A stretch of DNA of 37,021 nt from Folioceros fuciformis (lineage: Eukaryota). Below, one piece after another: positions 1 through 34,475 of the stretch (its first letter is position 1; each line of letters begins with the position of its first letter). A model generated the notes under the pieces. That model worked only from the letters and a program-made list of their open reading frames with translations. It was not told where the DNA came from and ran no database searches. The DNA lies in NCBI GenBank assembly GCA_049999805.1, contig JBNGIO010004566.1, positions 1 to 37,021 of the forward strand, read 5' to 3'. Both the position numbers and the translations under genes were made by a program.

Positions 1-278
1 TGCTGATGCGGTCGGAGTTGCTGGAGCCGCTGCAGGCTTTGCGGCGCAGTGTGGAGATATTGAACGCCTATTCGTGCGCTATCCTACAGGCGGAGGCGGA
101 GCTCCCGGCCGCATGGGATTCCCCAGCTGTCGACTCCGCGGTCCGCCGCCATGTGCTGGCTCTCAAGGAGATGGTCTGCGGGCATTTCTACCTGTGCAAT
201 GGGTCCTTGCCGAACCGCTACCGCTGGCCAGATTTCTCGACTTCCAACAGTCTTGCCAACAACATAGCTGCGGGCTAG
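1..278 (+). CDS. 5'-partial ORF, probable C-terminus of a microbial-type class I terpene synthase-like protein (MTPSL)
   Basis: GC-rich frame open from the window edge: LMRSELLEPLQALRRSVEILN...EAELP...VRRHVLALKEMVCGHFYLCNGSLPNRY. This resembles the last helices of microbial terpene cyclases (LM...xLQxA...; VxxYVxxLxxWxxG..W.....RY). The metal-binding DDxxD/NSE motifs would lie outside the window, so the call is by eye only. Confidence 0.5.
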   Translation, partial: LMRSELLEPLQALRRSVEILNAYSCAILQAEAELPAAWDSPAVDSAVRRHVLALKEMVCGHFYLCNGSLPNRYRWPDFSTSNSLANNIAAG

Positions 279-583
279 CCACGCTGGTCTGCGATGGATC
301 TAGCTTCTGGCTTTAGCTGAATGTAAGCGAAATGGAGAACGGAGAAGCTAGGAGCGTGAGCGCAGAAGAACAATTTGAACAGAATGAATGGTTCGGGTCT
401 GTCTGGTTTGCGTTCGGAAGCGTTTGAACAAGCACAAGCGTATGCGCAGTCTTCGTGCGACAAGGCGAGGGAGCCGCACAAACTGAAAGCCGATTGAAAA
501 CATATATGGTTGGCATAGTTTGTTCCATACATATGAGAAACAAGTGGCCATTGGTCCAGGACCTGCATCCGCCACAAGTCCAT

Positions 584-773
584 GTACATGTTTCTTCTTT
601 GAATTGAGTAAATGTAATGACGTATATGTTTCTTGCTTGAATTGAGTAAATGTATTGATGTATATGTTTCTTGCTTGAATTGAGTAAATGTATTGATGTA
701 TATGTTTCTTCCTTGAATTGAGTAAATGTATTGACGTATATGTTTCTTTTTCTTCCGTGAATGGAGTAAATGA
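584..773. repeat. 38-bp AT-rich minisatellite, about 5 copies
   Basis: Unit gaattgagtaaatgtattgatgtatatgtttcttgctt starts at 601, 639, 677 and 715, with partial copies on both sides. Confidence 0.92.
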
Positions 774-1209
774 TGTTTGCAAAGAGGATTCACTTTGGAG
801 AGCCAAAAGTGTTTGAGTACTTACAGTTAGTACTTTAAAAGTACTTATAATTTGTACTTTATAAGTATAAATTGATAACATAGATTAATCCAAAAAAATC
901 AAGAGACTGTACAAGACACCCTCTAAGTTGGAGAGACACCTCTTCAAACAAGCTACATTAGTTTGAAGACAAACTCTACATTGAGGCTTGTTTGCTTTGA
1001 AGCCTTGTGGGCATCCAGCTACAAAATGTGGAATTATTGATGACAGCTTATATTCAGTTGGTGACCTCAATTGGAGACATAATATCCTCTGGTTGGGAAT
1101 ACAAGCAAGAACTACTTACATGAACCCCTTGAGTCCCCAACAAAATATGGAGGTGCAATTGGTGGCATTACGTTGGAGGAGTCATAGTTAGCATTGGTTC
1201 CATGAAGTA

Positions 1210-1707: not shown

Positions 1708-2657
1708 TTAGTTGCTGCTTTGGACAATCGTAAACCTTTCGTCACCAAAGACTAATGTATACTCATGTGCTCCCTTCAGTGTTTCCTTCCGGACCTCATA
1801 GAGAGCAGCCAACAAGTCGCAGACCCAGCCAGCGATAGCTCCTATAATAAGGTCAATAGTATAGTGGCCTCTACTTCCAAGCATGCGTATGCATTGCAAG
1901 AAATTAAGGGCGTCGACGATGGTTGCTATACGCCGCCGTCTCATCCTCTTCAGATCCAGTGACGCGATTACGGCTCCAGCAACGTGACCTGAGAAGAAGA
2001 AAAAGAAGGAAACACATCCTACTGGGAAGTCCACTGTCGATGCGATGAACTCCTGCCGGACAGACAACTCGCCTTTACAAAACAAACTCGTTTCGAATAA
2101 GTGAACATTAACCAACCAGCATGGGGCGCGGGGGCGCTTACTTTAGGAATCGGCAACCGCGTAGTGGACCCCAGGACGCCTCGACTGGTGTACAGCAAGA
2201 GACAGGCTGTGCATGCTCGCCGTCTTCCCTCCAAGAAGAATGTAGACGCGATGTAGCCGATTTGGAAAAGAACGAACATCTACAACCACATACTAGCCTG
2301 TTAGCATCCTGCATACTCGACTCCGCTTCTGGCAAACGTTGCAACGGATGAAAGGAAGCTCAGAGAAGAGAATTCAAACTGCCAGACCGTGTTGAGAGCA
2401 GCGAGGAAATGGTGGAAAGCGAGGTGGTCGTTCAGGAATTGATATACAGGCGTCGTGAACAGAAATCCAAGGTCAAGAGGCTCATGACCAGTCTTCACCA
2501 TGCGCAAGCCGTACTCCACTTTCATGAACAAGACGAAATTCAAGCTGAGCAGAACCAGGAGCGGATGATCCCGCAGTGCCTGCACCAAGCTCTGCACTGT
2601 CCAGTGCCTGCAAGACCATCCGAGGGAGGTAACTTGCAATTTGGTATTCGGGTCCAT
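1708..2657 (-). CDS. ROD1: Phosphatidylcholine:diacylglycerol cholinephosphotransferase (PDCT/ROD1); exons 2657-2388, 2279-2142, 2052-1708
   Basis: Motifs VEYGLRM...EPLDLGF...LAALNT, EGRRRA...RGVLGSTTRLPIP, VDFPVG.VSFFFFFSGHVAG...SLD and RMLGSRGHYTIDL match plant PDCT. Two phase-0 GT-AG introns join the exons in frame. The start could be a slightly upstream in-frame ATG. Confidence 0.93.
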
Positions 2658-3481: not shown

Positions 3482-5691
3482 CTACACTTGTCTGTACCCG
3501 TGCTTTTCAAGGAGTAGGCCCACTTTGTCCAGCAGGGCATAGAGCTCTTCGCTGTCTGCGTGCTGGTAGTCACCAACCAAAAAGCTATGCACTTTCTGAT
3601 CATGCTCGATCCAGCTCCGGCCAGGTTTCTTCCAAGCAAAATCCTTTTGTCTCAAAGCATGTACCTCGAGGGCACTGTCCAGAAGTCCAGCATCTGCATA
3701 TATGTGCGACATCACGACATATGGGGCAGCATTAGTAGGCTCTAAATGCACGGCACTTTCGAACGCCATCTCTCCTACCACAACGTTGCCGTGCTTCCGA
3801 CAGGCACCCAGCAAACACAGCCACAGGGCCAGGTCAGGCTCTACTGGCATTCCTGACAACAAATCTTCTATCTTTGTGAAGCATCCTGCACGCCCTAACA
3901 GGTCCACCATGCTCACATAATGCTCCAGAGCTGGGGTCAACCCATAATCTCTGCTCATAGAATTGAAATACTCAATACCTTTGTCGATCAGGCCGGCATG
4001 ACTGCATGCTGATAGAAGTGACAAGAACGTCACATCATCCGGCTGGATCCCGGTTTGCTGCATTCTCTCATAGCATTGCAAAGCTTCTTGACCAAGCCCG
4101 TGGTGAGCATATCCGGCAATCATAGTGGTCCAAGTTACCGTATCTTTAGAAGGCAGTCTGTCAAATACTCTGTTGGCCTCTTCTAAGCTCCCACATTTGG
4201 AATACATGTCCACCAAGCTGCTTCCGACAACCGTAAGGGCTTCCAAACCTTCATCCTGAATTTTGGAATGCACAAGCTTCCCTTGATATAGAGCTCCACT
4301 GCAGGAACATGCGTTCAGAAGGCAAACAAATGTGACATGATCCGCCGCGGACATCCCTTCTCGTTGCATTTGTTCATACAGAGACAGCGATTCTTGAGGC
4401 AGCCCATTCTGAGCATATGCTGAAAGCATCGCATTCCATGTCACCAAATCTTTTGAAGGCAAACAGTCAAACACTTTGCGAGCGTCCTCAAGGTTGCCAC
4501 ATTTTGCATACATGTCGACCAGGCTGCTGCCTACCACCAGACTATGTTCAAATTCTCGTTCCCGTCTGTGGGAGTGGAGCTCCTTGCCCTCATCTAAAGC
4601 TCCAACACTTGCGCATGCTTTCAACAGGCAAGCAAACATGACATCATCAGCCAAACTGACGCTTTCCTGCCGCATTCTTGCATAAAGAGCAAGGGATTCC
4701 TGTCCAAGCCCACGCTGGGCATAGCTCGAAATCATTGCAGTCCATGTCATACTATCCTTCGCAGCTAGACCATCAAACACGGTTCGAGCATCCTCCAGTC
4801 TCCCACATTTGGCGTACATGTTGACCAGGCAGTTCCCCACAAATTTATTAGGCTCAACTCCACTTTGCAAAAGGTCAGCATGAACCTGCCTGCCTGCTGC
4901 CAAATCTGCGGCACTTGTACACGCTTTCAGCACTGCCACGGCCATATAGCTGTCCAGATTGACATTCGACTCTCTCATTTGCTTATATAGCATTATGGCC
5001 TGCAAAGGCTGGCCATGTTCGGTGTGAGCCAATATGATAGACACCCACATGTAACCACTAGGTGCAGTCATCTGCATAAACACCTGCATTGCTTCCTGCA
5101 ACCTCCCATGAGAAGCATACATGCGGATGATATGGTTGGCCAAGAATGTGTTTGCATCAAACCCACTTTTTGCAAGCAGAGAATGAACACGTGTCCCAAG
5201 AACCAAATTCTCCTGTGCGATGCAGCCCTTAAGCACGTGAAAGATGAGGGGTGCGGAAATTGCACACCGTCGCTCAACAAGGCAGTGCAATGCTTCGACA
5301 GCCTCATTGAGCTGTCCTTGGCATAATCTCCTCCACGCTTCAGCTTCAGGTTCTGCGTCACGTCCAGCTCCAGTTTCGATTGAAGCCTGGTGAGATGCTT
5401 TCGTACCCCTGGCAGACCGCAGTGTTCCATGTTGGGACAGACGCCCCAAAGGGTTCCCCGCTACACGTTGCTTGTCTTCCGGATTACCCTGCCACGTTGA
5501 AGAGATTGATGCTCAGATCTGCAGCAGTGACATATGAAACAGATCGCAGGGCATGAAATCACCTCATTCAGCCTGCTGTCCCAACGGGTGCTTGTGGGCT
5601 TGATTACCTGCTGAGCTGCGCCCCGCAGTGACGACAGGCGCCTGCACCCAGTCAAGAACGACAATAGCCGATGCGTGCCACGTTTACTCAT
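3482..5691 (-). CDS. PLS-class PPR protein, E+ type (PPR-A); model 5691-5608 + 5488-3482
   Basis: About 4 P-L-S triplets, then P2-L2-S2, E1/E2 and AWKKPGRSWIE...HSFLVGD, stopping at ...KHGYRQV. An upstream exon MSKRGTHRLLSFLTGCRRLSSLRGAAQQ joins in frame through a 119-nt phase-0 GT-AG intron. Confidence 0.92.
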
Positions 5692-5970: not shown

Positions 5971-8900
5971 ATGAGGAAAGGTTGTCGGAGGGAGTTTGTG
6001 GTTTTGCGTGGGAGCGTCTGCCGCAGGTTGTCATCGTTGCAGCTCGCAGTGGAGCATCACATACCTTCAACGAGCACGGTGGAGCCCAATGGAGGGCAGG
6101 CTCGGTGGGAGCAGGTTCTGGCAGATCGTTCGCACGGCTGGGAGAACAAGGTAATTCACGTCAGTAAACACAATTGCTTCTCCCAATGGTTCTCTTGTCA
6201 TGGGCAATGTGCTTATGACTTCGTTGCAGACAACTCAAACCTACTGTTGTTTGAGGAACGACGAGAATGTGTGTGAAGGTAGACCTGACAGCTGCTGTAG
6301 GCCTAAAGATGACGACGTTGGGCGGTGCAGGCCACAGCCAGTCAGGTGAGCTGGCTTCTCCTGTTTGCTTGTCCTTCGGCTTTGATGAGACTGGGTAGCA
6401 TTGGGTGTTCAAACTCGTAATGCTGCACCCGCATGCATGGCACACCCAAGCAGTTGCTGTTTTGACAGTCCTCTCAACCTTGAAGGGTGTCAGACTATTC
6501 GTTCAATTTCGAAATTGGAACTTGGGGTGAAGGCATCCAAGAGGGTCAGCTCGTCAAGGCTGTTGCGGCATTGGACTTCCTGGTTCAGCGAGGTTCTTAC
6601 GTGTCAGCATCGTTGTTCCACCAACTACTCAGACGATGCACTGAATGCAAGGATCTGGTTCTTGGCAGAGGTGTTCATGATCTTGCTTTTAAGAGTGGGT
6701 ATGTGTCTTCTGCATTTATGGCCAATCACATCATCCGCATGTATGCGTCCCATGGAAAGCTGCTGGAGGCGACACAGGCATTTTCAGAAGTAGCTGTACC
6801 GGACACGTTCATGTGGGTCTCCCTTATTTCAGCACACAGTAAACGCGGTCGCTTCAGGCAGGCTCTAGATCTGTACAGACAGATGAGAGAAGCGAGCGTT
6901 AATGCAGACAACCACGTATTTATGGCTGTCCTCATTGCATGCGCTGGTGCTGCGGATTTGGCATTGGGGAAGCAGGTCCACGCAGATATTCTGCGGTCTG
7001 CAATTGAACCCGATTTATCTGTTGGCAACTGCTTGGTGGACATGTATGCAAAGTGTGGCAGCCTGGAGGATGCTCACAGGGTCTTTGACAGTTTGTCCTC
7101 AAAAGATGTGGTGACATGGACTACTATGATCTCCGCATTTACTCAGCATGGGCTTGCACAAGAATCCCTCAATCTTTACGCAACTATGCAACAGGGCATT
7201 ATTCCAGCTAATCGTGTTACATTTGTGTGCCTACTAAAAGCATGTGCCGGAATAAGAGCCTTACATGAGGGCAGACGGCTTCATTTCGACATAAAAGAGA
7301 GCGGTCTAGAAGTTGATCCACTCGTGGGCAGCACCCTGGTTGATATGTATGCAAAATGTGGCAGCCTGGATTGTGCTCGTACAGTTTTTGACAGGTTGTC
7401 GACGAGAGATGTTGTCACATGGACCACTATGATTGTCGGATATGCGGAGCATGGCTTTGGTCGAGAGTCGCTCACCCTTTATGCTGTTATGCAGCAAGAG
7501 GGCATCATCACAGCGGACTCTGTTATGTATTGCTGCCTTTTGAAAGCATGTGGTAGCATTGCAGCCCTACAGGAGGGTAAGAAGATTCATGCCCAAATGC
7601 ATGAAAGTGATATCGACATTGACGTGGTTATGGGAAATTGCCTGGTTGACATGTATGCAAAATGTGGCAGCTTGGAGGATGCTCGCATGGTGTTTGACAG
7701 TTTGACCACAAAAGATGTAAGTTTATGGACTACTATGATTTCAACTTACTGTCAGCATGGACTTGGTGTAGAATCTCTCCATCTGTATAGAAGAATGCAG
7801 CAGGAAGGTATCTGCCTTTCAGATAACGTCGCGTGTGCCTGCCTTTTAAAAGTGTGTGCTAGCATTGGAGCTTTACATGAGGGGATGGAGCTTCATTCCC
7901 AGATAGAGAAACGAGGTCTGGAAGCTGACATTGTCATTAGCAATGCTCTTGTCGATATGTATGGAAAATGTGGGAGCATTGGCAAGGCTCGCCGAGTATT
8001 TGATAATCTACCTTCGAAAGATGTTGTGACATGGAATTCAATGCTTGTGGGATACGCGGAACACGGGTTTGCCCGAGAATCCCTTGCTCTCCATGCAAGT
8101 ATGCAGGAAGAGGGCATCACTTGTGCTGACACTGTTACTTTTGTGTCTCTCCTGAAAGCATGTGGCAGCATTGGAGCTCTACATCAAGGGAAGAATATTC
8201 ATTCTCAGATCCAGGTTCTAGGGCTGGAAAGAGAGCCGGCTGTTGGCAGCAGCTTGGTGGACATGTATGCAAGCTGTGGGAGCTTAGAGGATGCTCGCAC
8301 AGTATTTGATCAATTGCCTCAGAAGGATGTGGTGACCTGGACTGCCATGATTGCTGGGTACGCTCAGCAAGGTCTTGGTCATGAGTCACTTCATCTGTAT
8401 GCAGAAATGCAGAGGGAGGGTATAACTGTAGCTGATCACGTGACATTTGCCGCCCTTTTGAAGGCTTGTGCGAGTGTTTCAGCTCTTGACAAAGGAAAGC
8501 AGCTTCATTCCCACATCCTGGACCTAGGATTACAGTCTAATCTGGTTATAGGCAACTGCCTGGTGGACATGTATGTGAAATGTGGGAGCGTGGGGGAAGC
8601 TCGTAAAGCATTTGACAGATTGCACACAAGAGATGTGGTGACATGGACTTCGCTAATATCTGGGTATGCTCAGTTTGGTTTTGGTGAAGAAGCGCTTACT
8701 CTATATGCAAAGATGCAAGAGGAGGGTCTAATTCCAGCAGACCACGTTACATTTGGCTGCCTTTTGAAAGCATGTGCTAACAGTGGGGCATTGCACCAGG
8801 GAAAGCAGCTTCATTCTCAAATTCGGGACCTAGGATGGCAAGCTGACCTTTTCCTCAGCAATGGCCTGGTAGACATGTATGCCAAATTTGGCAGCATCGT

Positions 8901-9879
8901 AGAGGCTCGAAAAGTGTTTGACAGTATGCCCAAAAGAGATGTGGTGACATGGACTTCCATGATTGCTTGCTATGCTGAGCAAGGTTTTGCTCAGGATGCC
9001 CTCATGCTATATTCAGGAATGGAACAGGAGAGTGTTTCTCCCGACCATATGACGTTTTCCTGCCTTTTAAAAGCCTGTGCCAGTCTTGGAGAGTTGAGTG
9101 AGGGTAAGAAGCTTCATACTCAGATAAGGAAGCAAGGACTAGAAGGTGATGTGCTTGTTGGCTTGGTGGACATGTACGCAAAATGTGGGAGTTTAGAGGA
9201 CTCTTGCGACGTGTTCAGCAGATTGCCAACAAGGGATGTGCTGTCTTGGAATGCAATGATTGCTGCCTACGCGCAGCATGGGTCTGGTCGGGATGCTGTA
9301 CAATGTTACGGGAAGATGCAGCTGGCGGGTGTCAAGCCTGATAAAGTCACGTTTCTTTCTCTTCTCTGTGCATGCAGCCATGCTGGACTAGTGGATGAAG
9401 GCATTGGTTTCTTCCACTCCATGTGTCGCGAGTACCACATAGCTCCAGAGATGGAGCATTATGTCAGTGTAGTAGACCTTTATGGTCGTGCAGGATGCTT
9501 TGCAAGGGTGGAACATTTAATTTCAACAATGCCAAGTCAGCCAGACCTTGCAATCTGGTTGTGTTTGTTGGGGTCCTGCCGGAAGTATGGAAATGTAGCG
9601 CTGGGAGAGCAGGCGTTTCAATGCGCAGTGTATCTAGAGCCCAAGCACGCTGCAGCTTACGTATTGATGTCACAAATTTATGCTGAGGCAGGGTTTACAG
9701 ACCTTGCCCTAGAAGTGCACGTATTACGACAGAAGGAAGGTGCGTGGAAGATTCCTGGGGAAACCTGGATCAAGCATGGGCAGGAAGTGCACAGATTCGT
9801 AGTAGGAGACAACCTGCACCCAGATTATAAGCAAGTCTATGATCTGTTGGAGGAGTTGAACTTGAGATTGAAGGGTTGA
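5971..9879 (+). CDS. PLS-class PPR protein, E+ type (PPR-B); tentative model 5971-6150, 6230-6345, 6486-9879
   Basis: 1130-aa open frame with about 9 S motifs (DMYAKCGSLEDA...) in P-L-S order, ending AWKIPGETWIK...HRFVVGD. The main exon has no ATG before the conserved region. The upstream exons (MRKGCRR...RRLSSL) are inferred from GT/AG sites and phase. Confidence 0.92.
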
Positions 9880-10230
9880 GGGCGTTCCGTACGAAAACAG
9901 CGCATGGAGTTCGTGTGCACAAGGTGGCTTTACATCTGTGGCAAAGTTTCAAATGCCATCGAGCATTTGGGAGGGACTGCTCAGAAGATCATATTGTCAT
10001 CTGGATCAAATATTGCAGCTGAACTGATAAGGTCCATGCAGTGGAACCACGACCAGTAACAGGATTGATGATAGTAGAGCAGGTAAATGTATTCTGCAGG
10101 TAGATTGCTTGTAGCCCCATGGGCAGCCCCGCACATTTGTCACGCATCATGAAGAAAGTGAGTAGTAATATGGGTGGCCTTCTAGATGACCATAGCCTGG
10201 TTGGTGGCAAACAACTTGACGTGGGTATTT

Positions 10231-13200
10231 TCAAAACTTGCAGGGATTCCCTGTGAGCGTCCTGACCGAGGGGACAAGTGGTACGTGCAATCTGGCCTCA
10301 AGCACATCAGGGTGGAGTAAAAAGAGACCTCCAGACCAACGAGCAATGTTGTGGGGCGTTGGAGGCAGCCTGAATTGTGCTACACGTTCACCTTGTATGA
10401 TCCCAGCGTAGGTGAGAAATATTGCCTGTAGAGCCTTCGCACCTGTGAGTTCACTGTACCAAGATGCTATTTTAGGATATAGTGCTTGGACCAATATGTC
10501 TCCGCCAGCTTCCCATATTTTTTTGTGCACAGCAACCGTAGGCCACTCGAAAACTCCATCTGAGAGTTGGACAACTCCCACACATTCACTAGGCTTCCCC
10601 TTGCAGTAATGAAGAAAGACTTTCACCTCCACATCCCCTGAAATGGGCTGCGCTTTCATCCGACATCCTGGCTTCTTTCGGCAAGTATAATCATATGGCC
10701 TTGTAGCAGGAGCTGTTGCAGGTCTGCCTGAACCATATATAGGTGGAGGTAAGCCATCCAACGTGCTATGCAGGTAACCAGGAGGCGATGGAGGTCTGGA
10801 ACTTGGTGGGGATGGTGATTGGCCTCGGGAGCATGGCGGGGATGGCGACTGGCTTCTGGAATATGGCGGGGATGGTGATTGGTCCCTGGAACATGGCGGG
10901 GACGGTGATTGGTCTCTGGAACTTGGCGGTGATGGTGATTGGTCTCGGGAATATGGTGGTAACGATGATTTGTCTCTGGAATGCGGTGGAGATGGTGATT
11001 TGTCGTTGGAACACGGCGGTGATGATGATTTGTCTTTCCTCGTGTGCAGATCCTGTGGTGGCGGTTGTGATGCGCCTTTGCCACCAAGAGGACAAGACGT
11101 GGGTTTGGATGCACTAGGAGGGGGAGCAGGAGAAGGATGAGAGGATTTTGCAGCAGACGGGCAAGGAGTGGGTTTGCCACCCTGCGTGCTATGCAGGTGA
11201 CAGGGAGGCGATGGTTGTCTGGAATACGACGGGGATGGTGATTTGTCTTCCTTGTTGTGCAGCTCGCAAGGGGCCGATGGTGATTTACTTTTGGCAGCAG
11301 CTGGCCCAGGTGTAGGTTTGCCTGCCGTATGAGGGTCAGCAGAAGAAGGACAAGCAGATTTGGCAGCAGAAGGGCAAGGAGAGGTTTTGGCTGTATGAGA
11401 AGGGGAGGAAGGTTTGGTAGCAGGAACAGCTTTAGGTTTCTCAGACGGGGTCACTGCAGCTGCTGCTGTTGCAGGTCGAGTCTGTTGATTGCTGGGTGGA
11501 GTGTTACAGAAATCTGGCTGTCCTGTAGATGTCACACAACGGTGCCACATATTGCTGTTTGGATCTACGAAGCGGGAATGCTTGATAACAACTGGAATTG
11601 GCAGGAGGCAGTAGTGAGTATTGACAAGACCCACAGTCACGTTGGAGTACCCGGCAAATGCAGCATGAACCTGCAGAACACCCATGCAAACACGATGTCT
11701 GTCGAACCTCTCATGAAGAACAGGGTAGACTGAACTCGTATTTGACGCTGTGATGTGAAGCAATATTTGGCTTACTGCATTCTGCCCCAACACACTGCAA
11801 AAAATGTGGTCCGCCGAGTTACACGGCCTGGCTCGAATCATGTACGTGGGATCTATGTACTTCACGTCTGCTGACATTTTGATCTTGCTGAAATAGGCTT
11901 TCACCTATAAGTATGGTGTCAAGGCAGTGACGAGTTTGCGAAGCAAATTTTCAGTTGCAACCTGGTTCACAGGCAAGAATCTGGTCTGTTGGGCGTAACT
12001 TCTTGCTTCTCAACTGATACATCACTAACCTGGCTGTAGAACCATTTGCCAACATCTGCTAACACAGTGTTTCCTGAGGCATCGACAGCCCCCGTCTTCT
12101 CAAGAAGATCCTGCAGTGTTAAAAGCTAGCGTGACGATTGGCTGCACATCGACTGACTCAACTTGTACTGTTCGGTGTGACAGATGAACATCAACCACTC
12201 AAACCCGCAAGAGCACCTGTCCGGCACCTTCTGCAACCACAACGACACAAATGCCATTCCTTTCCAGTCTTTTTTTCATGAAAGCTAGCACGCCATTGTT
12301 TCCGTCCATCATAAATGGTACCTGCAGGTTTACGAGAGCGAAAATGGTAGGAACCCATAACATTTGCAACAAGGGGCACGAATGTTATAAAGATGTTACC
12401 TCAGGAATGAGAACCACATCTACTTGGCCACTTGCCAATGTAGCATGCATGGCTATGAAACCACTGTGCCTTCCCATGAGTTTCACAATACCAACACCGT
12501 TGAAAGCGCTAGAGGCCTACCAAAACACAGCTGAGCATAGATCAACACCGGAAAGGATACAGTGCTGCTCAGAATTAACAAAACAGCAAGCTGCATTCCT
12601 GCGCTCCACTGATGAAGGCAATAGGCAACAGCACCTCCACATAAGCAGCGTTTATGGCACGTTGAGCCTCCTCAACAGCTGTGTCGAAACCAAAGCTTTT
12701 ATCAACTAGAAGAAAATCATTATCAATTGTCTTGGGCACTCCTACAACGGCTAGCTTCAACTTGCGTGCCCAAACCTAGCACATTAACAGTTGGTATTAA
12801 AGATTTAACATGGGCCATGAACCTGACCCTTCTGCTCTTGAAGAGCGGCGACTGACGTTTATGGGACTTACTTCCTTGAAGATTGCATTTGCCCCGGCAT
12901 GTGAACCATTACCACCGATGACGAACAGCATGTTAACCTTCCATGCCTGCAGTAAAACGAAAGATTGAAATTTTCCAGGAGGGAATGCTAGGTAACTCCA
13001 CCAGAACCAATGCTCTCGCACACCTCTAATTTATCGACTATCTCGGAAATTTTTGGGCCACCACGAGTTACACCCAAAAAGCTGCCCCCTTGCATGTTGA
13101 TCCGTTGCACTACCTTTCTGTTCAGCTGCATATGTCACAGCTTAAAACTTGTTCAATGCCTTGGGAAAGTGATCAGAATCAGAACTTCCCCAAAAGGAAT

Positions 13201-14244
13201 AACTTCCCCAAGAATGCAAGCAAGGATGAGCTTACGGCAATGGGCGGTAGCTTCGGGTCGGAGAATCCACGGAACCCATACTGAATACCCAGGATTTGAC
13301 TCACACCATAGATCTCCAACGTGGATACAATCTGCATCACAGACATCTGAAGCATCACATCACATTTCTTCAGCAGCTTCAGACTAGCTAGGGAATAAGC
13401 GTGGTAAATACATGACCCCTACCTGACGAATGACATCATTAAGACCGGGACACAGCCCACCAGAGGTAAGGATGGCAGCCTTCACCTGGCAAAGACCAGT
13501 GTTAGACTTGAAATGAGACTCGAAAGGGATGAGACAATGTGAGGGAAGGACCAAACCATAGACAACAGAATACAGTATGTGCATACGCACTTCTTCTGGG
13601 CGAAAGTATATCCATGCCCTTGGGCCTGCACGTCGAGCCCTGGAGCAAGATGAGGCAGGAATTACGAACGGAAAGCAACCAGAGATTGAATAGTCCAAAT
13701 GTGAGCACGTGGAACGCAACACACGCACCACATGGGCCTAAATTGCCACTCCCCATTCTCATCAGTCTCAATGCCAGCAGAAGTTGGGTGGCCATAGTGC
13801 ACAACCTAGAAGACAGGTTGATTCGGTTGTCAGAACATTCGTGCAAGAACCGCACCTGCTTGCACCATTTTTGCATTTCTGCGAAACGGGCCCTCAGCTA
13901 CACAGCCGTCACCTTGACTGTACCTTCACAAGAACACGATCCTCATCATGCACAAACAGTCTCCCCATGTCATGCCTATCTGGTCTTGGTGGGCTGGACA
14001 CCCCATCTGGCAAAGGTGCTCTGGTACATAATGCAAGAGATGTGAGAAACAGGAGCGTGCCGGAATCTGTGCTTCATGCAAATGAGTGAAGCAAACTGGA
14101 TGTGGATGTGTACCCGCTTTTAGTCCTGTACGTTGATTCAAGCCGTCCCAGGCCAAGATAGTCCCCTAAGTGAGGCAACTCGAACGCGTCATCGGACTTT
14201 TTAGGCAACGACAGCTCTTCCTCCAGCGCACTCTTTCTCCCCAT
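10231..14244 (-). CDS. PFK5: ATP-dependent 6-phosphofructokinase, PFK5-like, multi-exon, with a 425-aa C-terminal extension; start codon uncertain (14244, or an upstream exon from about 14418)
   Basis: Spliced motifs [128 protein letters not shown] and [23 protein letters not shown] and WHRC point to the PFK5 type. Confidence 0.93.
10790..11040 (-). repeat. Coding 33-bp tandem repeat, about 7 copies of 11-aa [15 protein letters not shown] units
   Basis: Plus-strand unit approximately atggcggggatggtgattggtccctggaac with a 33-nt period; the reading frame is preserved throughout. Confidence 0.9.
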
Positions 14245-14952
14245 CTCCAGTGCCTGACAAGCAAGCTACACAACCACGCAGCGCAAACAGGAAATCCTGT
14301 CTTGCGCATGCTCATGTCTGCCCAACGCAAGAGGGATCCAGTCCGGCTGCCGCTGCTGCCCTGTGGACGCAATCTGAGATTCGCTGCTCTCCCACAGTCT
14401 GCTGTTGTTCGTCACCATTTTACGACAAATTCTCTATCCAGATTTCGCAGGGTCCGACCATTCCCGTGGTGGCCGAACCGCAAAAATTGCATCCTGCACA
14501 CAACTCCTTGGTCTCGTCAAACCCACCAGGGATTGCCTCGGGTTCGATACACACAACAAACATCTCACTGAGCAACCACACGGCACCGGCGAGACGCGCG
14601 CATTGCAGCAGCCGGCATGGGTTCAGCTGACTGCGGGCTCAATTTTCTCTAACTACCAAGCCGCCTGAAAAATCTCGGTCGTCTCCCACCTGCCTTGCAG
14701 AAATGGTGGTACTTGGCACGGTGACGGAAAGGCCGTGGTGCTTCTGAAGATAATGACAGGTGGCAGTTTGGGTGGACATTTGGCTGTGTTGGTCTAGGTG
14801 GCCTTTAAATTCGGTACGGAGGAATGCTGCAGGCATGCATCAGGGTGGCAATGTTCAGCAGCTCCTCCGTTGAAGTATCTAATCCACGTTCTTGCTGTGG
14901 GTCCATGAACGAGACGCGGTTGACGTTGGTTGGGCTTTGATTTCTTGTTCAA

Positions 14953-17768
14953 GTGCAGGGCAAGCACCGCGGCCAGGAAGGACGGGGTCTGGGAATTGAA
15001 TTTCAACAGGGGCAGAGATTGGAAGCTGCTGGGGGGAAGACGTGGGAGGAGGAACTACTTGGTGAGGATGTTGAAGCGTTGGGCCTTGTGGTGGACCGAC
15101 GACCTCCAGTCCCTGTATCTCTTATCCATCGCTTTCTCAGGAGGTGCATGGCAGAGGGGAGTTTGGTTCTCGGGAGGCGAGGTCATGCTCTGGCTCTTCG
15201 ATGTGGGCTAGAGTGCGACATGTTCTTGGCCAGCCACTTCATCCGCATGTATGCTTCCCATGGGAAGCTGGAGGAAGCCACACATGCGTTCTCCAAACTG
15301 GCGGTCCCAAGCACGTATCTGTCGTCCTGCATCATGTCGGCACTTGCTGATCATGGGGACGTTGCACATGCCCCGGGGCTGTCTCAACGGATGACTGCAG
15401 GGCCAGATGATCGCACCTTTGTGGCGATACTCAAGGCATGTACCAGGGTAGGAGATCTGGCATCGGGCAGGAAGGTCCATGCAGATATTTTGGGGGCTGC
15501 AGTTGAGCCAAATGTCTTTGTCAGCAACTGCCTGGTGCATATATATGTTAAGTGTGGCAGGCTGGAGGATGCTCGCAAGGTTTCTGACAGTCTGAGAACA
15601 AAAGACGTGGTAACTTGGACCACTATGGTTGGCGGGTATGCTCACCATGGCCTTGGTCAGGAACCTCTTTCCCTTTATTCAGATATGTGCAACGAGAGGG
15701 CGTCTGTGCAGCCAATCATGTTACGTTTGCTTTGCCTTTTGAAGGCCTGTACCAGGATCTTGGATCTACCTGAGGCTAACCGGCTTCATTCCGAGTTGCA
15801 GGAAAGGGGTTTGGGGACTAATCTTCTTCTTGGCAACTGCCTGGTGGACATGTCTGCAAAATGTGGCAGCCTTGAGGATGCTTGCAAGGTCTTTGACTAT
15901 CTACCCGTGCGGGATGTGGTGACATGGAATGCCCTCGTAACCGGGTATGTGCAGCATGGCCGTGGTCAAGAGAGTCTCGCTTTGTTTGCAAGAATGCAAC
16001 AGGCAGGTATTCATGCCTATCAGGTGACATTTGCCTCCCTTCTAAAGGCATGCGCCAGTATTCGAGCTTTACGTGAGGGGAAGATTCTGCATCGCTGGAT
16101 CAAGCAGAAAGGACACGAGGATGATGAGGTTATTGTCAACTGTCTGGTGGACATGTATGCAAGATGCGGAAGCTTAGAGGATGCTCGCAGAGTATTTGAC
16201 AGATTCCGGTCACGAAATGTGATAACATGGACAGTCATGATAGCAGCATATGCTGACCAGGGTTTTGGTGAGGAATGTCTCTGTCTTTATGCAAGGATGC
16301 AGCAGGAAGGCATCACTCGGGGTGACCCCGTTACATTTTCATGTCTTCTGAAAGCCTGTGGCTGTATAGCGGATTTGCATCGAGGAAGACAAGTTCATGC
16401 CGAAATCGAGAGCCATGGCCTGGACTCCGATGTGATCGTAGGCAACTGCCTGGTAGAAATGTATGCAAAATGTGGCAGCTTATTCGAAGGGCGTGAGGTG
16501 TTTGATAGAATGCCCGAAAGAGGTGTGACATGGACTGTGATGATATCCAGGTATGCTGAGCATGGGCTTGGTCAGGAATCTCTTGCACTCTATGCAAGTA
16601 TGCGGCAGGAAGGCATTACTTCAGTAGACAGAATTGTATTGGCCTGCCTTTTGACTGCGTTTGCTGGTTCAAGTGATTAGGAGCAAGGGAAGCAGCTTCA
16701 TTCCCAGATTCAGGAGCAAGGCTTTTAATCTGATACGCATGTTGGCAACCGCCTGGTGGACATGTACGCAAACTGTGGAAGCGTAGAGGATGCCCATCGA
16801 GTCTTCAACAGTATGCCCATCAGAGATGTTGTCACATGGACTGCCCTAATTGCCGCATACTCTTAGCAGAGGCTCCTCAAGGAAGTCCTCATTCTTTACG
16901 CAAGGATGCAACAAGAGGGCATGACTTCACCTGATAGCGTCACATTTGCATGCCTTCTCAAAGCTTGTGCAAGCCTGGGACTTCTACATCATGGAGAGGA
17001 GCTCCACGCCCAGATTCAGAGCAGGCAGGGACTGGAAGAACGCGAACTTATTGGCCACTGCCTTGTTGCCATGTATGCGAAATGCGGCAGTTTGGAGGAA
17101 TCTTGTAAAATATTCAACAGACTACGAGCAAGGAATGTGGTGGCATGGAATGCCATGATCGGTGGCTATGCTCAGCACGGACGCGGCCAAGAGACAATGA
17201 GATGCTATGAAAGAGGTGTTTTGTGGGTATCAAGCCAGATGCAGTCACCTTTCTTTCGCTCCTCACAGCTTGCAGTCGTGCTGGCCTAGTTGACAAAGGT
17301 GATGAGTACTTCCAGTCCATGAGCATGGCCCATGGCCTGACCCCACCGATAGAGCACTACGTCTGCATGGTCGACCTGTTCGGGCGTGCAGGAATGTTCG
17401 CAAAAGTAGAAAAGCTGCTTATAGCAACGCCCATGGAGCCGGATCTGGCTCTGTGGCTGTGTTTGCTGGCTGCATGCCGGCGACACACAAATGTTGTGCT
17501 GGGAGAATGTGCATTCCGCTGTGCTGTGCACGAACATCCTAAACATTCTGCCGCGTATGTGATGATGTCTCACATTTATGCCGACGCCAGTCTGCTGCAC
17601 CGCGCCGCTGTAGTGCAGTCCTTGAGAAAAAAGGCAGGCGCGTGGAAAGAGCCTGGCCACAGCCGGATTGAGCTCGAGAAGGAAGTCCACTGGGTCTTTA
17701 AGGGAGATCTTTCTTCAACCTCGAGAATAGCTTGCCTGTCCACACCCTTCGCTGTGACTCGATGGTGA
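14953..17768 (+). pseudogene. PLS-E+ PPR pseudogene (PPR-C)
   Basis: PPR homology continues across in-frame stops TAG 16678-16680, TAA 16726-16728 and TAG 16864-16866, and across a frameshift near 17210-17225 (CYE.../GIKPD in different frames). Conserved residues are eroded (DMSAKC, VSDSL, PGHSRIE). The 5' end is unresolved. Confidence 0.88.
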
Positions 17769-18188
17769 ACCTGTCTGCATTAAATCTCGAAAGCATACCC
17801 ACCCGTTTTCTGAAATTTCTTCTCGGCCCGCCTTGGAGCCTGTCTCGCATCTCTGTTACTTACACGCTTGTGGCACTGCTCGACACGTCTGCTGTTAAAG
17901 AGCTCTGAACGATGGCGTCCATCAAAGCTGTAATAATGTTTGTGCCTTTCTCGGCATCTCGGAGAGACTACGGGTTGTCTCTGACTGGTCGAGAAAAGAG
18001 ATAGCCGCTCTCGTAATGCAGGGGTCGAACTTGGCTCTTCTCAACTTCTGAATCCCTCGGCTTGCTTGCTTGCTTGTGGTAAGGCTGCCAGTGCAGCGGT
18101 CAGGCTCGCTGCTACATGGAGAAGGTTCTATTTCCTTCACCTGTGCCGCCCATGAAGTCCACCTCGGCCGCAGGAACCGGGATCGCAA

Positions 18189-21100
18189 ATGAGGAAAGGT
18201 GGGCGTTTGTTCATGCGGAGCCGGGGCAGGCATCTGTCGTCGTTGGAAGTCCTGGGCCTGGAGAGGGCAATAGCCGAAGGGTCCCATTGCAGAGTGGTGA
18301 AGGATGATGGGTACCTGGGTGACGCAGTCGAAGCATTGGGCTTCCTGGTGGAGCAAAGGCTGTACGTTTCCGTTTCTCTCTTGTGCAACGTGCTCAAAAG
18401 GTGCATCCAGCAGAGGGATTTGGATCTTGGTAGGCGTGTGCATGCTCTCACTGGGAACAGTGGATATGAATCCAACACACTCTTGGCCAATCACATCGTT
18501 CGCATGTACACTTCCCGTGGGAGGGTGCAGGAAGCATCACTGGTTTTCAGCAAGTTGGTTTCTCCAGATGCTTTCGTCTGGCTGTCCATAATCCTGGCAC
18601 ATGTTGAACATAAGCGACCTGCACAGGCTGTAGAACTTTATTGGCAGATGAGAAAGTCGGGTGCTGATGCCGATAGTCATGTTCATGGGGCAGTCCTTAA
18701 AGCTTGTGCAAGTACAGCAGATCTTGGTTCAGGCAAACAGGTACATGCTGATCTTTTGCAGAGAGCGCTTCAGCCCAATGTGTATGTTGCGAACTGCTTG
18801 GTGGACATGTATGCGAAATGTGGCAGCTTAGAGGATGCCCGCACAGTTTTTGATAGCTTGCCCACGAAAGATGTGGTGTCCTGGACTGCCATGATTGCTG
18901 CATACGCTGAGCACGGGCTCGGTCAAGAAGCTCTTGCTCTGTACGCGTTAATGCAGCAGGAGGGCATCACTGCTGATCGCATCACATTCTCCTGCCTTTT
19001 GAAAGCATGTGCAGGCGTTGGTGCCTTGAGTGAGGGCAGGGAACTCCACTATCAGATACAGGGTCAAGGGTTGGAAGCTGATTCATTCATTGGAAGCTCT
19101 CTGGTCCACATGTACGCAAAATGTGGTAGCTTGGAGTGTGCTCGTGAAGTGTTTGACAGATTGGTAACAAGAGATGTGGTCACATGGACTGCCATGATAG
19201 CCGGGTATGCCCAACATGGGCGTTTTGAAGAATCTTTGGGTATATATGCTAGTATGCAAGAGGAAGGCAAAACTGAAGCCAATCATGTAACGCTTGTGTG
19301 GCTTCTGAAAGCGTGTGCGGAACTCAGAGCTCTGCAGCAAGGCAAGGAGCTGCATGCGCATGTTCAGGAAAGAGATTTGGAAGCTGATGTTGTTATTGGT
19401 AACTGCCTCGTAGACATGTATGCAAAATGTGGGAGCTTCGACGATGCTCGTCAACTGTTTGATAGACTGCCCACAAGAGATGTGGTGACTTGGACTGCAA
19501 TGATAGCAGGATATGCTCAGCACGGATTTGGTGATAAGTCTCTATCCCTTTATGCAAGCATGCGGCATGAGGGCATCACGCCAGCTGATTCTGTTACTTA
19601 CGCCTGTCTTCTCGGAGCATGTTGCAGCACTGGAGCACTGCGTCAGGGTAAGGAGCTCCATGCCCAGATTCAGGAGAGAGGACTTGAAGCTAGCATACTT
19701 GTTTGCAACTCGCTGGTGGATATGTATGCGAAATGTGGAAGCTTAGAAGATGCTCGAATAGTATTTGACAAGTTGCCCCAAAGAGATGTAGTGACATGGA
19801 ATACTATGTTTGCTGCATATGCTCACGTTGGTCTTGGGGAAGAGGCTCTGGCTCTTCGTGAGAGCATGGAAGAGGATTGCATTACTGAAGCTGATCATGT
19901 TACGTTTGCCTGCCTATTGAAGGCATGTGCAAGTGTTACAGCTTTGCCTTCAGGGAAGGAGCTTCATCGCCAGATTCGACGCAGAGGATTGCAAGATAAT
20001 TTGGTTATCAGCAACTGCCTCATAGACATGTATGCTAAATGTAGGTCCCTAGAGGATGCTCGTGACGTGTTCGAAAAGTTGCCCCGAAAGGATCTGGTAA
20101 CATGGACTGCCATGATTGGTGGATATGCCGAGCAGGGCCTTGGTGAAGAGGCCATAAGTTTATATACAAGGATGCAGCATGAGGGAATGACTTCAGTCGA
20201 TTGTGTTATGCTTGCCTGCGTCTTGCGAGCATGTGCCAGCATTGGAGCTTTACACAAGGGGAAGCAGCTTCATTCCGAAATTGAGGTCAAGGGATTGAAA
20301 GCAGATATAATTGTTTGCAATGCCCTTATTGACATGTACGCCAAATGTGGAAGCTTAGAGGAGGCTCGGAAGCTGTTTGATGAGATGTCCACCAAAGATG
20401 TGGTTTCATGGAATACCATGATTGCCGGATATAGTCAGCATGGATTTGGTCAGAAATCCCTTACATTGTATGCAAGAATGCTTCACGATGGCAACGTCTC
20501 ACCTAATCAAGTCACTTACATATGCCTTTTGAAAGCCTGTACAAACATCGAAGCCTTGCATCTGGGAAAGGAAATTCTCTGTCACATTCGGAAAAGGAAG
20601 CTGGATGAGGATGTAGTTATCGGCAACTGCTTAGTGGATATGTTTGCGAAGTGTGGCAGTGTCGAGGATGCCCGAATGGTGTTTGACAAGCTGCCTGTGA
20701 AGGATGTGAGAACGTGGAATGCATTGCTTGCAGGATACAATCAGAGTGGCTTCGGTGAAGGATCCCTGGCTCTCTATGCACGTATGCAGGAAGATTCCAT
20801 TGTAGCAGATCAAATCACGTACGTGTGCGTCTTGAAAGCGTGTGGAAGCATTCGAGCTTTGTGGCAGGGAAAGAAGGTGCATAGCAAGATAAAAGAAATA
20901 AACATGGAGACTGATATTGTTATTGGCAACTGCCTGGTGGACATGTATGCAAGATGCGGAAGTTTAGAGGATGCTCGTAGAGTGTTTGACAGACTGCCCT
21001 CAAGAGACACAGTGTCATGGACTACAATGATTACCGGGTATGTCGAGCACGGATCCAGTCAAGAAGCCCTTTCTCTGTATGGAAGAATGCAACAGGAGAT

Positions 21101-22066
21101 CCTTACTCCACCTGATCAGGCCACATACGCATCACTTCTGAAAGCGTGTGCAAGTACCGGAGCTCTTGATCAAGGGAAACAGCTTCATGCCGAGATACAG
21201 GAGAGGACATTAGAAGTTTCTGGGGTCATAGGCAACTGTTTGGTGGATATGTATGCGAAATGTGGGAGTCTGTTAGATGCGTGCAGTATGTTCAGTAGGT
21301 TGACCACAAAAGATGTGGTGACTTGGACTGCCATGATCTCGGGATATGCTCAGCACGGGTACAGTCAAGAAGCGGTGGACTGCTACGAGAAAATGAAAGT
21401 GGCAGGTACGAAGCCAGATGGGGTCACATTCCTCTCCCTTCTCTCCGCTTGTACTCATGCTGGCCTGGTCATGAAAGGTGTGGAGTACTTCGAATCCATG
21501 GCCGGAGATTACGGCATCTGTCCCCAGGCTGAGCACTACGTCTGTATGATGGATCTGTTTGGCCGTGCCGGATGCTTCAAAATGGCAGAAGAATTGTTGT
21601 TCCGCATGCCAATGCAACCTAATCTTGCAACTTGGTTATGTTTGTTGGGCGCCTGTCGGAAGCATGGCAATGTTGTATTGGGAGAACGGGCATTCGACGG
21701 CGCAGTTCGTCTAGAGCCACAGCATCCTGCTGCATATGTGTTAATGTCCCAAATTTATGCTGACGCTGGCCTTCAGGACCGAGCACTGGAGGTACATGCA
21801 GTGCGACAAGAGCGGGGTGCGTGGAAGGAGCCTGGCCAGAGCNNNNNNNNNNNNNNNNNNNNNNNNNNNNNNNNNNNNNNNNNNNNNNNNNNNNNNNNNN
21901 NNNNNNNNNNNNNNNNNNNNNNNNNNNNNNNNNNNNNNNNNNTGGCCAGAGCTGGATTGAGTGCAACCAAGAAGTTTACACGTTTGCAGTAGGAGATAGC
22001 CAGCAGCCGGAATATAGAGAATTGTATACTCTACTGGCAAAAGTGAGCAAACACCTGGAATTGTAA
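18189..22066 (+). CDS. Long intronless PLS-class PPR protein, E+ type (PPR-D), interrupted by a 100-N assembly gap
   Basis: ATG at 18189 (MRKGGRLFMRSRGRHLSSL) followed by about 10 P-L-S triplets. Closing the gap at the duplicated tggccagagc gives AWKEPGQSWIECNQEVYTFAVGDSQQPEYRELYTLLAKVSKHLEL*. Confidence 0.92.
21843..21942. other. 100-N scaffold gap with overlapping flanks
   Basis: tggccagagc occurs immediately before (21833-21842) and immediately after (21943-21952) the Ns. Confidence 0.9.
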
Positions 22067-22453: not shown

Positions 22454-25400
22454 CTATCCCCCTGCCTGTTTTACCTTCCATTCCACCGTTTCTAAAACAT
22501 CATTCAGTTCCATATGATAAGCATGCTCGCTTCCAACCACAAACCTGTGAATTTCCTGCCCATGCTCAATCCAGGTCTGCCCGGGTGCCTTCGATGCACC
22601 TTTATTTTGCCTTAATGCCTGCAACTCCACTGCTCGGTTCACAAATCCAGCATCAGCATAAATCTGGGACATGAGCACATACGCTGCAGGGTGTTTCGGA
22701 TCTAGTTGCAGCGCATTGTCGAAAGCCCTTTCTCCCAATGGCACGTTGCCATACTTGCGACAGGCACCCAGCAATGACAGCCACATGGCTAAAACAGGCT
22801 GCATGGGCATTGTTGACAAAAAACTTTCAACCATAGCGAAGTGCCCAGCACGTCCAAATAGGTCTATCACAGTGACGTAATGCTCAATGGTTGGCGCTAT
22901 GTCATGATCTCTGCCCATTGATTCAAAGAACTCTACAGCCTTGTCCAAAAACCCAGCGTGACTGCATGCACAGAGAAGTGACAGAAATGTGACTTCGTTT
23001 GGCTTCACACCAACCAGCCTCATTTTATCATAATAGTGGAGGGCTTCTTTACCGCAACCATGCTGTGCAGAACCTGCAATTATGGCATTCCATGATACCA
23101 CATCTCTGGCGGACAATCTTTCAAAGACGCTACAAGCATCCTCAAGACTCCCACATTTGGCATACATGTCCACCAGGCAGTTGCCGACAAACAAGTCAAC
23201 GTCCATTCCCCTGCCCTGAATCTGTCGATGGATCTCCTTCCCCTGCACTAACGCTCCGATGCTTGCACATGCTTTCAGAACACAGGTGTAAGTAATGGGA
23301 TCAGGGGGAGCGTTGTTCTCGTGCTCCATAATGGCATAGAGCGCAAGACATTCTTCGCCCAGCCCATGCTGTGAATATCCTGCCAACATTACATTCCATG
23401 TCACTATATCTTTCCTGGAAAGCTTGTCAAATACGGTCCGAGCATCCTCCAGGCTGCCACATTTTGCGTACATGTCAACCAGTGAGTTGCTTATAACGAC
23501 GTCAGCGTCTAGTCCTTTTTCCTGAATCTGAGAGTGGACCTCCTTCCCCTCATGCAAAGCTCCAATGCTGGCGCATGCCTTCAAGACGTTCACAAATGTG
23601 ACCTGATCGGCAGGGGTCATGACCTCTAGTTGCATATTTTTGTATAAGGCAAGACATTCTTGACCAAGACCTTGCCGGGCATATCCTGAGAGCATCAGAT
23701 TCCATGATCTCACGTGTCTGTTTGGCAACGCATCGAACACTCTTCGAGCATCCTCCATACTGCCACACTTCGCATACATGTCCACCAGGCCATCACCAAT
23801 GAGTGTATCAGCTCCTAACCCTAGCCCCTGAATGTGCAAGTGCAGTTCCTTGCCCGGAAGCAAAGCCCCAACATCAGCACATGCTTTCAGCAGACTGGCA
23901 AATGTAACAGGGTCAGCAGAAGTAATTCCCTCCTTTCGCATCTGCGCGTAGAGGGAGAGGGCTTCCGGACCAAGCTCATGCTGAGCATACCCTGTGAGCA
24001 TAGCATTCCAAGTCACCACATCCTTCATGGGTACATTATCAAACACTCTGCGAGCATCCTCTAAGCTCGCGCACTTTGAATACATGTCGATGAGAGAATT
24101 GGCCAGTATAACATCATTAGAGAGTCCCTCTTCCTGGATTTGCAAGTGCAGTTCCTTACCCTCGTGTAAGGCTCCAATGGAGCCACATGCTTTCAGAAGG
24201 CACACAAATGTTACTACATTCCCTGAAACCAAGCCTTCCTCTTGCATGACCGCATAAAGACTTAGACACTCTCGACCAAGTCCATGCTGCACATATCCTG
24301 AAAGCATTGCATTCCATGAAACTACATCTCTTGTTGGAATTCTATCGAAAACACTGCGGGCATCCACTAAACTCCCACATTTCGAATACATATCCACCAG
24401 ACAGTTGCAAATAGCCAGATCATGAACTAAACCTTTGCTCTGAATCTGAGTATGAAGCTCCTTACCCACATTCAATGATTCAATGCTGGCGCAAGCTTTC
24501 AACAGGCAGGCAAAGGTCACAACATCGGCGGGCATGATGCCCTCGTCTTGCATCTCAGTATACAGTGCAAGGGCTTCTTGACCGAGCCCATGCTGGGAAT
24601 ACCCAGTAATCATGGCATTCCACGTCACAACATCCTTAGTGCACAAAGCATCAAACACTCTGCGGGCATCCTCCAAACTGCCGCATTTTGCATACATGTC
24701 AATCAGACAGTTGCCTACAGCCACATCTGCCTCAAGACCGCTTTCCTGAAGTTGATGGTGAAGCTGCCTGCCATGATGTAAAGCTTCCATGCTAGCACAC
24801 GCCTTGAGGAGACACAAGAATGTCACCTGATTGGCTGATGTGATACCCTCCTCTTGCATGCGTTCGTACAAAATAATAGACTCTCGACCAAGCCCATGCT
24901 GAGCATAACCGTCAATCATGGCAGTCCATGTTACCACATCCTTCTTAGCCATTGCGTCAAAGACTTTACGAGCATCCCCTACGCTTCCACACTTCGCATA
25001 CATGTCGACCAGGGAATTGCCAACTAGAACATTGATTGCCAGCCCCCTTCCCTGCATCTGTGAATGAAGCTCCTTGCCTTCATGTAGAGCCCCGGCGCTT
25101 GCACAGGCTTTTAACAAGCAGGCATAGGTCACATGGTCAACTGGAGTGTTGCTCTCAAGTTGCATTCTTTCATACAACGAAAGCGCCTCTTTACTGAGCC
25201 CATGCTCTGCATACCCAGCTATCATAACAGTCCACGTCACCTTGTCTCTTGTTGGTAACCCGTCAAACAATCTACGAGCATCCTCCAAGCTTCCACACTT
25301 GGCATACATGTCCACCAGGCAGTTGCCAATTACCATCTCAGTTTCCAATCCGCGAAGCTGAATCTGGTCGTGCAGCTGCTTTCCCCGATCTAACGCTCCA

Positions 25401-26404: not shown

Positions 26405-26519
26405 TTGGAGCACAGTTTATGTCGCTGAACCTCACATGGATATGTAATTAGGTCGACATAGTCTGATTGTCTCCACATCCAGTTCTCTGGATTTTGTGTC
26501 GAGGCTGTAGGACAGCACA

Positions 26520-34200: not shown

Positions 34201-34475
34201 AGGCTGCAGTGCGTCTGGAGCCAAATCATGCTGCTGGATACTTGTTGATGTCGCACATCTATGCCGATGCTGGCCTGCTGGACCATGCCACGGAGGTGCG
34301 TGCCAGAAGGCACGTAGAGTGCGCATGGAAGGAGCCCGGCCAGAGCTGGCTCGTGATTGGGGAAAGTGTACACAGGTTTGTCGTGGGAGACTGCCATCAT
34401 CCAGAGCATCCACATGTGTGTGAGGTACTGGAAATCTTGTCACGCTCATCGTCCCGCAATGTACCAGCCATATAA
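31250..34475 (+). CDS. PLS-class PPR protein, E+ type (PPR-F); tentative model 31250-31339, 31433-31536, 31688-34475
   Basis: Open frame of more than 900 aa with about 7 triplets, ending AWKEPGQSWLV...HRFVVGD. The main exon follows a ttgcag acceptor at 31687. Upstream exons are inferred from phase-compatible GT-AG sites. Confidence 0.92.

Follow-up and report, generated by a model that had tools for sequence, protein, structure and literature searches.

A putative tethered orphan module at the C-terminus of a plant-type phosphofructokinase of Folioceros fuciformis

ATP-phosphofructokinase (PFK) is the pace-setter of glycolysis. Here, we study a PFK gene on the minus strand of a 37,021-nt stretch of DNA from Folioceros fuciformis (contig JBNGIO010004566.1, positions 1 to 37,021; in the following, the window), whose last open reading frame (ORF) continues far beyond the catalytic core and ends in a conserved block of 140 codons. 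The closest described system is the ordinary plant-type PFK (Pfam family PF00365). The window protein resembles it in its first 475 aa, its intact exon structure and its short N-terminus, while it differs by 425 extra C-terminal residues, i.e., a linker followed by the block. The available portion of a 2025 review on PFK diversity (PMC12203962) describes the regulation of plant PFKs as poorly understood, states that no plant PFK structure is solved and does not mention a plant C-terminal extension of this kind. Full-text literature searches (parts of articles, supplements excluded) likewise yielded no description of a C-terminal module of this kind in any plant PFK.

Extensions of other PFKs are covered by the same portion of the review. 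In PFK of Trypanosoma brucei, a C-terminal 'reaching arm' lies over the effector site, in the Borrelia PPi-PFK a C-terminal extension disrupts this site, and yeast PFK carries an N-terminal glyoxalase-I-like domain (PMC12203962). Like the block, these add-ons are lineage-specific decorations of the core, and they can regulate (PMC12203962). However, the yeast add-on is N-terminal, the T. brucei and Borrelia arms are, as far as described there, short, helical and packed on the core, and none of them sits on a disordered tether of about 285 aa. PDB-sequence searches revealed no sequence likeness between any of these add-ons and the block. A regulatory arm of the T. brucei type was considered and rejected, since the block is not continuous with the core, i.e., 285 low-complexity residues stand between them.

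A three-part layout is known from many glycoside hydrolases, in which a catalytic domain is followed by a linker rich in Pro, Ser and Thr and a small, aromatic-rich carbohydrate-binding module (CBM). The window protein shares with these enzymes the layout, the variable low-complexity linker and a small terminal module with conserved Trp residues. CBM-bearing glycoside hydrolases are, however, secreted enzymes with modules from known CBM families, whereas the window protein is without signal or transit peptide and its module falls into no known family. None of the CBM families in Pfam matches the block, and its four invariant Trp residues would suit a CBM without being proof of one. Finally, Laminin_G_3/concanavalin-A-like domains are of similar size and show a weak local resemblance to the block over residues 66-149.

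The block (10234..10653, minus strand) forms the core of what appears to be an orphan domain. It is identical at 99/140 residues to the C-terminus of P0003, a protein of 435 aa and the only true relative among 1,835,955,588 representative proteins (HMMER, 3 matches at E<=0.001). P0003 shows the layout of the window protein, i.e., a PFK tail (it starts inside the last PFK exon), an unconserved linker and the block, and it ends at the same aligned position as the window gene, whose stop codon is TGA (10231..10233, minus). Its own gene caller also predicted it as one ORF from the PFK tail through the block. The original prediction, made from the letters alone, had placed a folded domain of about 150 aa at the end of the ORF, and the peptide it quoted is the exact minus-strand translation of 10234-10690, that is, the last 153 codons before the stop at 10231-10233. 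A block is indeed found there, but its conserved core is slightly shorter, starting at about 10653-10662 (AQP) and reaching the last codon. The four Trp residues pointed out in that prediction are W57, W67, W85 and W126 of the window sequence P0001, and 4/4 are invariant in P0003.

The prediction had also described this region as unlike the linker, which agrees with our data. The block is of globular composition (V, L, A and G foremost) besides being conserved at 99/140 residues, and the composition switches sharply at the linker border. In contrast, the linker (10654..11508, minus; 285 aa) is of low complexity with 24% P and 20% S, and it is conserved neither in length nor in sequence when compared with the S/P/T-rich linker of P0003 (251 aa). 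Its last ~20 residues (10654-10713) form a poorly conserved junction that still lay within the predicted domain span. Within the linker, Tandem Repeats Finder reports a tandem repeat (10795..11035, minus) with 8.0 copies of a 30-nt unit at 79% matches, which corresponds to a Ser/Pro-rich unit of 10 residues.

The ORF frame obtains the top codon-usage score of all six frames over the block, using a crude score trained on the neighbouring pentatricopeptide repeat (PPR) genes. The GC content by codon position is 0.61/0.43/0.46 (GC1>GC3>GC2), as in nearby coding sequence. Both patterns are consistent with a coding block, but as weak indications.

The block terminates a PFK gene model of 900 aa with 14 exons, 13 GT-AG introns and 0 internal stops. 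We assembled this model from contig splice joints and reading frames: 9/13 introns are supported by direct contig joints and 3/13 by frame and GT-AG ends only, while for the intron 12776-12871 the joint is only approximate and stems from a single relative. The encoded protein divides into 475 aa of PFK (last motif GQPDF), the 285-aa linker and the 140-aa C-terminal block. Among the exon translations tested against Pfam, 4/6 matched PF00365 (E 3.7e-11 to 5.3e-3), and 2 single exons exceeded the family's cut-off of 30.9 bits (43.3 and 33.7 bits).

The last of the 14 exons is held, together with an in-frame intron of 105 nt, by a 557-codon ORF (10231..11904, minus). The other 13 exons occupy 11776..14244 (minus), with the start codon at 14244-14242 and without an N-terminal extension. 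Since the start adjoins the PFK core and an in-frame stop lies 8 codons upstream of the ATG, a transit peptide is not expected; judging from this short N-terminus, the enzyme would be cytosolic and free of a signal or transit peptide. The final PFK-coding stretch of the last exon (11509..11670, minus) ends with GQPDF and is in frame with the linker, and the last 44 PFK residues are identical to the N-terminus of P0003 at 39/44 positions. The 105-nt GT-AG intron (11671..11775, minus; GTAAGC...TGCAG) is in frame and stop-free and is thus concealed within the long ORF. It splits a conserved PFK helix motif. P0003 begins just 3' of the position of this intron, which suggests that the intron is not open in the organism of P0003.

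Transcript-like contigs were compared with the window over 9500-15000. They come from a run labelled as the source organism (X3) and from three relatives (X6, X17 and X19). The contigs of these runs show the PFK introns as clean GT-AG skips, and the block is covered by contigs of X3 and of all three relatives. Over 10244-10958 and 11049-11972, the X3 contigs are identical to the window, without a single difference or gap; the long ORF is therefore no assembly error. Nucleotide differences between the relatives and the window amount to about 8-10.5% over 10078-10916, much as over the PPR coding end; the differences listed one by one (40/498) come from outside the block. In contrast to the block, the intergenic stretch from about 9928-9981 to 10077 yields no alignment at 80% in the relatives.

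The linker of the relatives varies in length. The 30-nt repeat differs in copy number, with the X17 contig skipping 90 nt (3 units), and three different 9-nt insertions are found near 11433-11441, one each in X6, X17 and X19. Among the length changes listed (12/40 indel rows), those of the linker measure 9, 9, 9 and 90 nt, i.e., all are multiples of 3.

The argument for selection on the block is a comparison within one and the same ORF and one organism pair. That is, between the window and P0003 the similarity of the linker is lost, while the block is still 71% identical and has the same end. Even between much closer relatives, non-coding DNA can no longer be aligned. We regard the block as probably a real, selectively kept coding module.

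Apart from P0003, the homologue searches remained empty. In a collection of 5.8 billion clusters, 1/269 candidates was confirmed among proteins of 306-975 aa, and this was P0003 again. With the profile A2, 0/470 candidates were confirmed among proteins of 78-280 aa and 1/7217 among proteins of 281-2000 aa of the same collection, where the single confirmed protein was once more P0003. Scans of metagenome contigs and of prokaryote genome contigs confirmed 0/242 and 0/74 pattern matches, respectively. Copies of the block that stand alone or are fused to other enzymes, which the original prediction had considered, were thus not found in these protein and contig searches. A second copy is also missing from the window (tblastn; next-best match E 0.26).

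Family searches gave a similar picture. Pfam reports 0 families for the block and for the 557-aa ORF at E up to 10, and no family for P0003 at E up to 0.01. With the block alone as query, 0 matches were found among the PDB sequences. When the 2-sequence profile was used instead, 4 PDB matches to N-alpha-acetyltransferase 60 appeared (E 1.1-1.3, 12.3-12.6 bits), which we consider noise. The top score in the ESM Atlas is 0.89, just under the line of 0.9, and refers to bacterial clusters without names; the P0003 block has no usable match there. Another candidate, P0005 (E 1.6e-8), was rejected as repeat-inflated, i.e., it is a 794-aa string of short repeats in which residues 43-85 are matched eight times. 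The earlier statement that no family can be assigned therefore agrees with the Pfam, PDB-sequence and ESM Atlas results. Of the two origins it had proposed, a new domain is supported by the absence of a known family, whereas capture from another gene is not, since with neither a stand-alone form nor another fusion nothing points to it. An origin from a transposon protein, named there as a refuting case, finds no backing in Pfam matches or in further copies within the window.

On balance, we read the region as the true translated C-terminus of a cytosolic PFK. It would consist of a lineage-restricted Pro/Ser tether and an orphan Trp module of about 140 aa, whose most probable role is that of a tethered module for binding or regulation. 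A mechanism of binding or localisation specifically is a tentative proposal by analogy: a binding module is favoured because the layout is that of enzyme, linker and binding module. Such a module may bind a partner or a cellular structure and would thereby set where and with what PFK works. PFKs of this type form oligomers. Since the core oligomerises, a holoenzyme would carry several modules on long flexible arms, such that multivalent attachment to a partner or structure is conceivable. The many Ser-Pro sites could turn the tether into a phosphorylation-controlled leash. Our second choice is a regulatory role, in which the module would dock back on the catalytic core.

In a more far-reaching version, the block would represent a lineage-born land-plant domain family that serves as a multivalent PFK anchor on phosphorylatable arms and gathers PFK at a cytosolic site or assembly, e.g., an organelle surface, a glycolytic metabolon or a condensate. 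We deem this version improbable as a whole; if true, it would amount to a plant-specific spatial organisation of glycolysis. A tethered conserved module of one plant lineage would in itself offer a handle on the cellular location and control of PFK, and the block would illustrate clearly how a domain that is young or an orphan becomes fixed on an ancient enzyme. Should the tail, on the other hand, turn out to be neither folded nor needed, it would be no more than a minor extension confined to this lineage.

Several observations weigh against reading the region as a translated and folded PFK C-terminus. First, P0003 is just one diverged orthologue. Second, the open frame says little by itself: when neutral point substitutions were simulated down to 71% identity, 9.9% of 2000 runs stayed stop-free (at about 85.5% nucleotide identity). 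Third, the run type of X3, X6, X17 and X19 is only guessed to be RNA. Every contig listed over the 105-nt intron 11671-11775 still contains it, including those of X17 and X19 from which the next intron (11905-12029) is spliced out, and the contigs thus need not be mature PFK mRNA. They are also strandless, and PFK mRNA may be merged with the transcript of a convergent PPR gene; the 2988-nt contig of X17, for instance, extends into the 3' end of that gene. Furthermore, an X3 contig (9500-10958) represents a spliced plus-strand transcript that is antisense to the PFK gene and overlaps both its stop codon and the block. The intron of this transcript (86 nt; 10158..10243, plus; GTGAGT...TGCAG) is seen in X3 contig record 12, which joins 10157 to 10244, and was assigned to the plus strand because canonical ends exist only there. 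This antisense transcript probably represents the 3' end of the PPR gene at 6487-9879, which is convergent with the PFK gene. The skip 10158-10243 is specific to X3 in our data, i.e., the three relatives show no such skip. Finally, we infer any role in binding, location or regulation purely by analogy.

The fold of the block, which no residue at a confidence of 70 supports, belongs on the same side. AlphaFold2 applied to the block alone reaches a predicted local distance difference test (pLDDT) of 32.9 and a predicted template modelling score (pTM) of 0.25. With the 2-sequence alignment, these values rise to 42.0 and 0.42, where 47/160 residues are at 50-70, 113/160 are below 50 and none is higher. 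A poor model is to be expected here, since only two sequences are available. The 2-sequence model, itself of low confidence, has its strands at 28-34, 47-56 and 100-116 and forms a helix over 64-90. In a Foldseek search of the PDB, this model had 0 matches with E<=0.001 (the lowest E is 0.085; template modelling score, TM, <=0.33). VIA-align in its wide setting, run over 48,161 chains, gave a best Z of 5.2 (Z>=5 in 2 chains, Z>=8 in 0), which is below the stated background. The 2-sequence model is too poor for either search to count. The folded domain of the original prediction is therefore neither shown nor refuted by the structure prediction and Foldseek comparison it had proposed: with pLDDT values of 33 and 42, the fold searches return noise.

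One alternative is a read-through tail that does not fold independently. That is, an ancestral stop was lost and the former 3' untranslated region is now translated, while the conservation results from close kinship or from another constraint on the DNA such as the antisense PPR 3' end. This would agree with the lack of homologues beyond P0003 in our searches, the structure models of very low confidence, the 9.9% of neutral runs that stayed open and the antisense spliced transcript over the block, as well as with an Atlas recognition value of 2260, which stays below the level of 2300 that is reached by 91/100 known families. Yet the adjoining linker of the same ORF and organism pair has diverged beyond recognition while the block retains 99/140 residues, 4 Trp and the same end. 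Intergenic DNA is unalignable even among much closer relatives, and the block's globular composition is unlike that of the linker. We therefore consider a read-through tail unlikely.

To a similar degree unlikely is a self-association or auto-regulatory domain, which would alter the oligomer state of PFK or cover its effector or active site. The described extensions of T. brucei and Borrelia PFK act in this way, according to the available review portion (PMC12203962), but they are short and attached to the core, whereas here 285 disordered residues intervene.

Less probable still is that the block lies outside the PFK polypeptide in vivo, either because it belongs to a separate shorter transcript from within the PFK gene or because most PFK mRNA ends upstream of it. 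The contigs give some room for this, as the 105-nt intron is still present in every contig listed over the last exon, and further introns in some of them. On X17's 2988-nt contig, however, a spliced PFK junction is tied to linker and block: the intron 11905-12029 is spliced (12028 joined to 11902), and the last exon, the linker (minus 3 repeat units) and the block follow. In X19, the same intron is joined on a contig of 773 nt that reaches no further than 11226; the block is carried by another contig (10078-10945). Further, two diverged organisms both lack a stop between the PFK core and the block, the linker frame survives length changes of 9 nt and 90 nt, and the gene caller of P0003 arrived at a single ORF from PFK tail to block. 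For these reasons, we retain the block as part of the PFK protein.

The remaining lead concerns P0004, a bacterial protein with 5 near-identical Laminin_G_3 (PF13385) repeats, which the block matches with 78.5 bits (E 5.6e-17, HMMER). BLASTP aligns block residues 66-149 (84 residues) to every repeat of P0004 at 23-27% identity. Against one repeat, the block scores 19.4 bits, compared to 6.8 for the best of 200 shuffles, while the P0003 block obtains 8.4 bits with a single repeat and 23.4 bits with full-length P0004. The score of about 80 bits is inflated because one modest match is counted five times over near-identical repeats, and 19.4 bits per repeat is unremarkable since the library holds 1.8 billion proteins. 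Membership in Laminin_G_3 is thus not supported, i.e., the similarity per repeat is not significant and fades in P0003, and the Pfam profile matches neither P0001 (E up to 10) nor P0003 (E up to 0.01). That the block is a very divergent concanavalin-A-like/Laminin_G_3 jelly-roll (lectin-type) that was taken up from another source and joined to PFK as a carbohydrate-binding module is accordingly very unlikely: the P0004 E-value, the W-x-x-GG-x-x-LV and RW-x-GG stretches common to block and P0004 repeats and a fitting size of about 140-150 aa are outweighed by a score summed over five repeats, a Pfam model blind to both sequences and a helix at 64-90 of the low-confidence model where LamG has strands.

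Within the PFK gene, contigs of X3 and X6 match only 34 nt of an exon (11831-11864) and are unlike the window on either side; they probably mark a paralogous PFK transcript in the X3 and X6 organisms.

The window is plant DNA, as seen from several long PLS-class PPR genes with E and E+ motifs. In total, six long intron-less PLS-class PPR frames are present, namely at 3482-5512 (minus), 6487-9879 (plus), 14941-17768 (plus), 18156-21992 (plus), 22454-26416 (minus) and 31674-34475 (plus). Pfam identifies E and E+ motifs in 6487-9879 and an E motif in 22454-26416. The frame 14941-17768 is spread across three reading frames, which may indicate a pseudogene. Runs of N, i.e., assembly gaps, are located at 1345-1354 and at 21843-21942, the latter within the PPR frame 18156-21992. 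Low-complexity repeats occupy the left end of the window (275-884, minus). The ORF 1711-2142 (minus) matches the Pfam family AtPDCT1/2 (PF24788, E 3.9e-41) and resembles an exon of a phosphatidylcholine:diacylglycerol cholinephosphotransferase.

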